From NCBI RefSeq assembly GCF_044647545.1, contig NZ_CP172818.1: 64,000 nucleotides of DNA; one strand, given 5' to 3'. Shown piece after piece: positions 3,440 through 3,790 of the stretch (within the stretch, counting starts at the first letter, position 1; every line of letters begins with the position of its first letter). Source of the DNA: Escherichia coli. GTDB lineage: Bacteria; Pseudomonadota; Gammaproteobacteria; Enterobacterales; Enterobacteriaceae. Below the pieces are notes generated by a model that saw only the letters and a list, made by a program, of their open reading frames with translations, was not told the DNA's origin and did no database searches. The translations under genes were made by a program, and so were the position numbers.

Positions 3440-3790
3440 AGAGATTCAGCCCTTTTGTTACCTCCTGGACCGCTTCCTGTCCTTCCAGTTGGAGCGAGAG
3501 TTAGTCGGGGCGGACTTTCACCGACGGAAAGATCGTGCATTTCAAGGCACACACAACAATATCTGCGAGCGTGCTATCCGTCCGGTCGTTATGGGACGAA
3601 AGGCCTGGTTGTTCGCTGGTTCACTGATGGCCGGGAACCGAGCGGCACAGATAATGAGCCTTCTGGAAACAGCAGTCTGGAGCCACATGCTTGGCTGACG
3701 GACGTCCTAACGCGTCTGCCCGGAGTGGCCGGAGGAGAGGTTGGCAGAGTTACTGCCTCTTGAGGGCTTTACCTTCTTTGGGTAAGTGAT
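3440..3790 (+). pseudogene. IS66-family transposase C-terminal remnant (frameshifted)
   Basis: Two adjacent frames give ...FQGTHNNICERAIRPVVMGRKAWLFAGS... and ...EPHAWLTDVLTRLP..., then LPLEGFTFFG, resembling the IS66 TnpC C-terminus. Confidence 0.55.

Follow-up and report, generated by a model that had tools for sequence, protein, structure and literature searches.

The interval between yjgX and IS4 in the leuX region of Escherichia coli very probably preserves two nested mobile-element fossils: a group II intron retrohomed into the transposase gene tnpC of an IS66-family element, a deletion followed, and yjgZ and the annotated start of yjgX are by-products of these events. The DNA analysed (the window, 64 kb of an E. 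coli genome) opens in the leuX region, which corresponds to the KpLE2/PR-Y neighbourhood of K-12. The IS66 homology is real and far beyond chance, and the homologies, the junction sequences, the insertion site shared by about 30 loci and the lack of a longer E. coli copy of the intron are direct observations. The locus is inert, and neither element can still move. IS66 remnants are commonplace and PGAP flags the present one already, labelling it in RefSeq as a frameshifted 'transposase domain-containing protein' pseudogene. The case as a whole is of a familiar kind, with modest novelty in its details.

Layout of the Locus

From left to right, the window contains ahr (297–1358, minus strand), tRNA-Leu(CAA) (1512–1596), a 5′ piece of the integrase gene intB (from 1783) and a stub of the phosphoethanolamine-transferase pseudogene yjgX (2816–2985, minus strand), the last identified by alignment to K-12 and described by RefSeq as 'missing N-terminus'. 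The 5′ 567 nt of a group II intron follow at 2986–3552 (minus strand), assigned by the Rfam family RF02003 and by identity to relatives, and are joined at 3553 to the 3′ end of an IS66-family tnpC on the plus strand. IS4, with an intact insG ORF, occupies 4287–5712 (minus strand; K-12 annotation via alignment and ORF list), and nanX and nanY lie beyond it according to the ORF list and the K-12 annotation and alignment. Between the right inverted repeat of IS66 and the IS4 insertion point, further right, there are 207 bp; the version of the locus in E. coli M15 lacks IS4, its sequence being uninterrupted across the site. The first-pass annotation had placed an IS66-family remnant between the intB block and IS4 and had called the leuX-proximal part of the island a graveyard of mobile elements. 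The remnant does lie between a truncated intB on the left and IS4 on the right, and the second description is apt for a series of tRNA-Leu(CAA), intB 5′ piece, yjgX stub, IS66 stump and IS4.

The stretch 2826–4299 is 97.7% identical to K-12-like genomes and 99–100% identical to ST131-type genomes. Relative to K-12 (comparison over window 2100–2900), the window lineage is missing IS2K, the 3′ portion of intB and roughly 1 kb of yjgX; its intB is reduced to 447 bp and its yjgX to about 170 bp, as in ST131-type genomes. A separate peculiarity of the window is a block of about 600 bp at 2212–2815, with 78% G+C and nearly free of T (C283 G187 A108 T26), which has many C and G homopolymer runs and poly-C at its bounds. 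Its position coincides exactly with the junction of the intB/yjgX deletion, where ST131-type genomes have the two sides joined directly. The block was found in none of 5,426 complete E. coli genomes and showed no relation to neighbouring or K-12 sequence when T-to-C, A-to-G and purine/pyrimidine collapsing were applied; its appearance is that of junk or filler from sequencing or assembly.

The IS66 Remnant and Its Intact Counterpart

One plus-strand frame encodes NNICERAIRPVVMGRKAWLFAGSLMAGNRAAQIMSLLETA and, after a gap, PEWPEERLAELLPLEGFTFFG followed by a stop, while a second frame encodes LEPHAWLTDVLTRLPG. When the frames are joined, the Pfam profile IS66_C (PF13817) is matched over positions 1–38 of 39 (E 7.6e-13). 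DDE_Tnp_IS66 (PF03050) is matched over positions 255–282 of 284, the last 28 only (E 1.1e-7), and the NCBIfam profile NF033517 over positions 329–387 of 387 (E 6e-19). A tblastn search of the whole 64-kb window with the intact 533-aa TnpC of E. coli M15 aligns residues 455–533 with 3555–3782 (E 7e-24) and finds no further IS66 pieces elsewhere in the 64 kb; the DDE catalytic core is absent. Neither tnpA nor tnpB occurs in the window (ORF list, tblastn), and both are present in the intact M15 element, which fits a remnant. The first-pass reading of TnpC C-terminal motifs in two frames with no intact ORF is thus borne out.

The tnpC piece comprises about 79 codons, from the DNN motif at 3553 to a TAA stop at 3783–3785. 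Alignment to the intact tnpC of M15 and to the copy in strain F8704-2 reveals two frame breaks: a 10-bp deletion between 3669 and 3670, by which a CCGCGAAACG-like sequence was lost, and one extra C in the run 3719–3721. The two indels sum to −9, which returns the final 20 codons of the window copy to the original frame. K-12 carries the 10-bp deletion and lacks the extra C.

IS66 homology begins abruptly at 3553 with ACAACAATATCTGCGAG, which encodes (D)NNICE. Downstream of the stop codon, homology to IS66 copies identifies a 3′ untranslated end of about 294 bp (3786–4079, plus strand) that includes the right inverted repeat (~4041–4079), ending ...GAACCCTTAC; IS66 copies at other loci cease to match at window 4065–4078. 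The remnant is therefore bounded by 3553 and 4079 (527 bp). The first-pass interval, 3440–3790, is correct from 3553 onwards, but its first 113 bp (3440–3552) belong to the group II intron on the opposite strand, and its right limit falls short, as IS66 homology goes on to the end of the right repeat. That annotation had also suggested looking for residual inverted repeats, of which the right one is present and the left one is missing from the window. It overlooked the 3′ non-coding end with its repeat, the intron junction at the left edge and the overlap with yjgZ.

An intact tnpA-tnpB-tnpC element is found at the same right-hand junction, upstream of nanX, in the mouse isolates M15 and M19. 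In M15 (NZ_CP010213, 3874925–3877621) the element measures 2697 bp (positions 1800–4496 of the extracted locus, L003), its left end being set at 1800, where many copies at other loci start to match. Its right end and flank are collinear with the window up to the IS4 site and on to nanX, and the flank past 4079 is common to both. The element ends, GTGTCGTTACGGGG... and GTAAGGGTTCGAGG..., agree in register at 25 of 39 positions; an inverted-repeat finder with 8-nt seeds missed these terminal repeats, which were found from the left end common to many copies and an in-register comparison. The DNN site is empty in M15 (CTGGATAATAAT), with neither intron nor IS4.

The M15 copy lacks an 8-bp target duplication (flanks ACAACAGC versus CAATTAAG), and the left end of the window copy is deleted. 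The left flank in M15, with a GNAT gene and a hypothetical gene, is unlike that of other E. coli. Lack of the duplication implies that the left side of the M15 element was rearranged as well and that this element is possibly not the direct ancestor. Nucleotide identity between window and M15 is only ~89%, and the ISEc49-like and F8704-2 copies reach 78–82%. Part of the window tnpC piece is nearer to the F8704-2 type of IS66 than to M15, and this pattern of similarity suggests a mosaic history of the remnant.

A Group II Intron Fragment on the Opposite Strand

The Rfam family group-II-D1D4-4 (RF02003) matches 3527–3388 on the minus strand over the full model (1–138), scoring 66.3 bits where the gathering score is 49 (E 2e-13 to 4e-14); this domain I segment contains the GGUGAAAGUCC motif. 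The intron starts with GUGUGCCUUG at 3552 and ends after AAAGCAAAG at 2986. Its 5′ boundary has the form GUGYG expected of such introns, GUGUG at 3552–3548 (minus strand), and is identical across all aligned relatives. On the minus strand ...CTCGCAGATATTGTTGT is followed directly by GTGTGCCTTGAAATGCACG... at the junction, so that the intron GUGUG stands immediately after the tnpC antisense sequence ...GATATTGTTGT. The insertion lies in the antisense strand of tnpC, between the G and the AC of the Asp codon of the DNN motif.

The fragment spans domains I–III, the start of domain IV and about seven codons in the frame of the reverse-transcriptase ORF. These codons are all that the window retains of the reverse transcriptase/maturase before the breakpoint, and domains V/VI are missing, the window having no Rfam match to RF00029. 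An assignment of 2986–3552 to degraded tnpC was considered and rejected: Pfam searches with all stop-free pieces of at least 25 aa from 2960–3600, on both strands, gave no match left of 3553, in keeping with non-coding RNA sequence. No Rfam family besides the intron was found in the searched sequence around the locus.

Full-length matches to a 563-nt query (2990–3552) occur on Enterobacter plasmids (~90% identity, two copies per plasmid), a Salmonella diarizonae plasmid (88%), an Azotobacter salinestris plasmid (76.5%) and Burkholderia plasmids (~72%). Positions 1–568 of a 1995-nt intron in Trabulsiella odontotermitis (NZ_JNGH01000101) are 91% identical to the window fragment. Within E. coli, the fragment is carried by ~1,530–1,610 of 5,426 complete genomes, as a single copy and always at this locus. 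None of the 5,426 genomes has a longer or full-length copy, the maximum being ~568 nt. This distribution points to one old event, probably inherited with the island.

RefSeq annotates nothing over the fragment, or just a 'hypothetical protein'. A survey of introns in Enterobacteriales lists E.c.I4-tr1, in CP4-6, as the sole intron fragment of MG1655 (Leclercq & Cordaux 2012, PMC3522654), and the yjgX-yjgZ fragment is thus unrecorded in that survey. The literature searched contained no paper linking a group II intron with yjgX, yjgZ or KpLE2. The fragment appears to be unreported, though a curated intron database or an Rfam genome annotation may hold a record of it.

Truncation of the Intron and the Start of yjgX

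Homology to the full-length relatives stops after AAAGCAAAG at 2986, about seven codons past the annotated start of the Azotobacter ltrA, and alignment across the breakpoint identifies the sequence from 2985 leftwards as yjgX. The annotated GTG start codon of yjgX (2986–2984, as in K-12) spans the breakpoint, and the AGGAG that precedes it comes from the intron. The RefSeq entry for yjgX, made independently, also records a missing N-terminus. The 'start codon' of K-12 yjgX is a by-product of the junction.

The Target Site in IS66 Transposase Genes

Group II introns often reside within other mobile elements. The copy on the Azotobacter salinestris plasmid (NZ_CP045303; L011, positions 4001–5996) is complete, with 1996 nt, RF02003 near its 5′ end and domains V/VI (RF00029) at its 3′ end. 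Domains V/VI are likewise present in the full-length relatives from Trabulsiella and Pusillimonas, and the RF02003 scores of the relatives range from 70 to 91 bits. The Azotobacter intron encodes a protein of 428 aa with RVT_1 and GIIM domains (TIGR04416, 342 bits) and no endonuclease domain. Read on the strand opposite to the intron, its flanks join into an uninterrupted IS66 TnpC motif, in which the intron splits the Asp codon of DNN between G and AC; an IS66 tnpB lies further along. In a four-way alignment of the window, Enterobacter, Salmonella and Azotobacter copies, the intron follows TTGTTGT in all, and the flanking tnpC sequences are only ~60–70% alike.

The generality of this site was assessed in one genome per bacterial species with a pattern made of only the first 19–20 nt of the intron and no exon sequence. 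The pattern matched 36 loci, which belong to Beta- and Gammaproteobacteria and to a few other phyla; together with three plasmid loci they gave 38 informative junctions. About 30 of the 38 lie at the same DNN site of an IS66 tnpC, always antisense; six are in unrelated contexts and two are ambiguous. Antisense translation of the 5′ exon at the ~30 junctions gives DNN, with DTN or DNS as rare variants, and then ..E..(I/L)R....GRKNWLF.GS. The target genes are highly divergent, encoding DNNIAENALR, DNNHLEQQIK, DNNWIENQIR, DNNPVENAIR and others at this position. Occupation of one site in ~30 such divergent tnpC genes is a signature of site-specific retrohoming and not of one spreading composite; a single IS66 element that spread together with its intron is likewise argued against by the divergence of the flanking tnpC.

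The relatives recovered with the 5′ pattern outside IS66 genes are six (L018, L019, L023, L024, L028 and L032). In L023, from a Chitinivibrionales metagenome-assembled genome, the EBS1 segment CACGAGAA pairs with its own exon CACTTGTG at six of eight positions, which suggests that L023 may belong to a retargeted sub-lineage.

The Azotobacter plasmid locus also contains a second, different group II intron (2119–3890 of L011, minus strand; RF01999 and RF00029) with its own ltrA. Some 110 bp separate it from the first, and it occupies the sense strand of the same IS66 tnpC 3′ piece, so that this IS66 copy holds two nested introns. The plasmid relatives nearest to the window fragment, from Enterobacter asburiae (L010, 4001–4886) and Salmonella diarizonae (L012), look truncated or decayed: the reverse-transcriptase frame of L010 is shut after ~100 codons and is followed by a transposase ORF on the opposite strand, and no match to domains V/VI was obtained in either copy.

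Proposed EBS1–IBS1 Pairing

EBS1 was located by mutual information between exon positions and intron columns. The proposed EBS1, 5′-ACAAUAAC-3′, comprises intron positions 214–221 (window 3339–3332, minus strand) and faces exon positions −1 to −8, the 5′ exon AUUGUUGU at 3553–3560 in minus-strand reading. Seven of eight positions pair in the window, and the mean over 21 IS66-inserted copies is 7.4 of 8. In L030 and L034 an exon change from T to G at −4 is matched by an intron change from A to C. When introns were re-paired with the exons of other copies, the observed pairing total was reached in one of 2000 shuffles. Recognition of the site by EBS1–IBS1 pairing is proposed on these grounds, the covariation coming from few independent changes.

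Many copies, the window copy not among them, have U at those positions of EBS1 that lie opposite synonymous third-codon sites (−2 and −5). Since U pairs with G or A, one intron of this type would accept GAY AAY AAY variants. GCAACAA (~3230–3236) was dropped as a candidate for EBS1, being invariant whatever the exon and expected to mispair at synonymous sites. The same intron–exon comparison gave no confident assignment of EBS2 or EBS3.

The junction and the pairing bear on the simplest alternative, that the IS66 piece is a plain stump left by an ordinary deletion and the abutting intron fragment an unrelated neighbour. Both elements are indeed truncated, and this part of the island is rich in deletions. 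IS66 homology, however, stops exactly at the intron GUGUG, the same exon/intron junction recurs in ~30 independent copies within divergent IS66 genes, and the EBS1 of the fragment pairs with its own flank; a chance abutment is accordingly given very little credence. Insertion of the intron at 3552/3553 explains where the IS66 piece begins.

yjgZ and an Hfq-Bound RNA

The tnpC remnant is overlapped by the K-12 gene yjgZ (b4277), whose predicted product has 109 codons and a TTG start. Its first ~74 amino acids are tnpC read off-frame, and its last 35 (LEPHAWLTDVLTRLPEWPEERLAELLPLEGFTFFG) are the true C-terminus of TnpC. The counterpart in the window (3455–3763, plus strand; window ORF list and K-12 translation) lies at the same locus with 97% identity, but the ORF that is open in K-12 is here cut short by the extra C. 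This truncation is shared by the window and ~450 genomes that are at least 99% identical to it. A survey of hypothetical proteins of K-12 gives neither a regulator nor a function for YjgZ (PMC12356324). These findings indicate that yjgZ is an artefactual ORF over the tnpC remnant and not a gene.

The opposite view takes yjgZ, or its window counterpart, as a real small protein domesticated from the TnpC C-terminus, in line with the K-12 entry 'uncharacterized protein YjgZ'. It can point to the open 109-codon ORF of K-12, to retention of the locus in ~1,500 genomes at 97–100% identity and to an adjoining Hfq-bound RNA reported for K-12 (PMC4152368). The high identity is nonetheless attributable to recent common ancestry, some two-thirds of the reading frame (~74 of 109 codons) is off-frame tnpC behind a TTG start, and the extra C truncates the ORF in hundreds of genomes. 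PGAP calls a frameshifted pseudogene, Pfam detects the IS66 tail alone, and the survey of hypothetical proteins is silent on regulation and function. A domesticated protein is thus most improbable, and yjgZ is best read as a frame artefact.

The RNA itself, 'ig-yjgZ-insG', was reported as a Northern-verified, Hfq-dependent transcript of ~300 nt between yjgZ and insG of MG1655 (PMC4152368). Its window equivalent would map to the IS66 3′ end, the right inverted repeat and the flank (~3790–4286). An Hfq-bound RNA between yjgZ and insG implies transcription of some of the relic or of its flank, and an exapted role is conceivable. No 56-aa ORF was found in the yjgZ-insG interval of K-12 under the ORF definition used. 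At 4291–4316, the terminal hairpin of IS4 and a T-run resemble a plus-strand terminator. No sigma-70-like promoter was found in 3300–4400.

These observations feed a further alternative, in which the relic was exapted, either by the IS66 end and flank giving rise to the ~300-nt Hfq RNA or by a ribosome-binding site in intron domain IV serving the yjgX stub. The verified RNA of MG1655 (PMC4152368) and the terminator-like IS4 element speak for it, and some intron fragments have been suggested to persist as regulatory elements (PMC4615759). The missing promoter, the lack of any Rfam family besides the intron and the pseudogene status of yjgX itself speak against it, and exaptation is considered very unlikely. 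The account of two inert, nested fossils is retained in what follows.

Proposed History and Significance

The order of events and the retrohoming mechanism are inferred. An IS66-family tnpA-tnpB-tnpC element of ~2.7 kb would first have inserted upstream of nanX. An endonuclease-less group II intron would then have retrohomed into the antisense strand of tnpC, at the G/AC boundary of the DNN Asp codon, guided by base-pairing of its EBS1 loop ACAAUAAC with the exon (A/G)UUGUUGU. An intron that is antisense to its host gene cannot be removed by group II splicing from the mRNA of that gene. From this general property, an intron antisense to tnpC would be unspliceable from the transposase mRNA, and the insertion should have inactivated the IS copy.

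A single deletion would subsequently have fused the intron at its position 567, a few codons into the reverse-transcriptase ORF, with an internal point of yjgX, with the loss of ~1.43 kb of intron (the protein gene and domains V/VI), ~2.1 kb of the left part of IS66 and the 5′ end of yjgX. Small indels would have followed, the 10-bp deletion being common to K-12 and the extra C confined to the window lineage, and IS4 would have landed 207 bp to the right. An intermediate, with a full intron in a full IS66 element, was not found at the locus, and the composite could have arrived already truncated.

A wider reading is held tentatively, with rather more doubt than belief. The fossil may stem from an undescribed lineage of endonuclease-less introns that specialises in the antisense strand of the Asp-Asn-Asn codons of IS66 genes and, through the U residues in the EBS1 of many of its members, can invade and disable divergent IS66 elements; K-12 would then carry an unannotated relic of this lineage that explains both yjgZ and the 'start' of yjgX.

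For annotation, the present analysis indicates that yjgZ, to this day entered for K-12 as an uncharacterised protein, results from a frame artefact, and a 567-nt group II intron fragment stands unannotated in ~1,500 complete E. coli genomes. For biology, the locus is a case of selfish element against selfish element, in which an intron lineage repeatedly targets three conserved codons of the IS66 transposase. With insertion into the non-coding strand, splicing would be unable to rescue the transposase gene. The significance is modest: a correction to reference-genome annotation and a tidy case of an IS66-targeting intron lineage.

Comparison with Known Systems

The nearest intact system for the host element is that of M15 and M19. 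The TnpC C-terminal motifs of these elements (DNN..ER.IRP..GRK.WLF.GS, then IS66_C) are also present in the window, which further shares with them and with the ISEc49-like copies labelled by PGAP a 3′ untranslated end and a terminal repeat starting GTAAG. In contrast to the M15 element of ~2697 bp, the window keeps the last 527 bp, lacks tnpA, tnpB, the DDE core and the left repeat, and has two frame breaks in tnpC.

For the intron, E.c.I4-tr1 provides a parallel within the same reference genome, being like the window fragment a truncated group II intron fossil in a cryptic mobile element of K-12, although it is another intron at another locus.

A functional precedent is Sr.md.I1 of Sinorhizobium medicae, an RmInt1-related intron of class D that is located inside an IS66 transposase ORF and retrohomes experimentally (PMC4615759). 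It is not a close relative of the present lineage: no Sinorhizobium record was among the 59 plasmid DNA matches to the fragment, and in the protein search, a plasmid tblastn dominated by unrelated ltrA genes, only 9 of the 5,000 scored plasmid records, a set with 86 Sinorhizobium records, reached 60% identity or more to the Azotobacter intron protein. The window copy also differs from Sr.md.I1 in being a 567-nt fragment that lacks the catalytic domains. Like the present intron, Sr.md.I1 is nevertheless a bacterial group II intron that naturally targets an IS66-family transposase gene; both lineages have a protein with reverse-transcriptase and maturase domains and no endonuclease, and in both the target would be recognised through EBS–IBS pairing.
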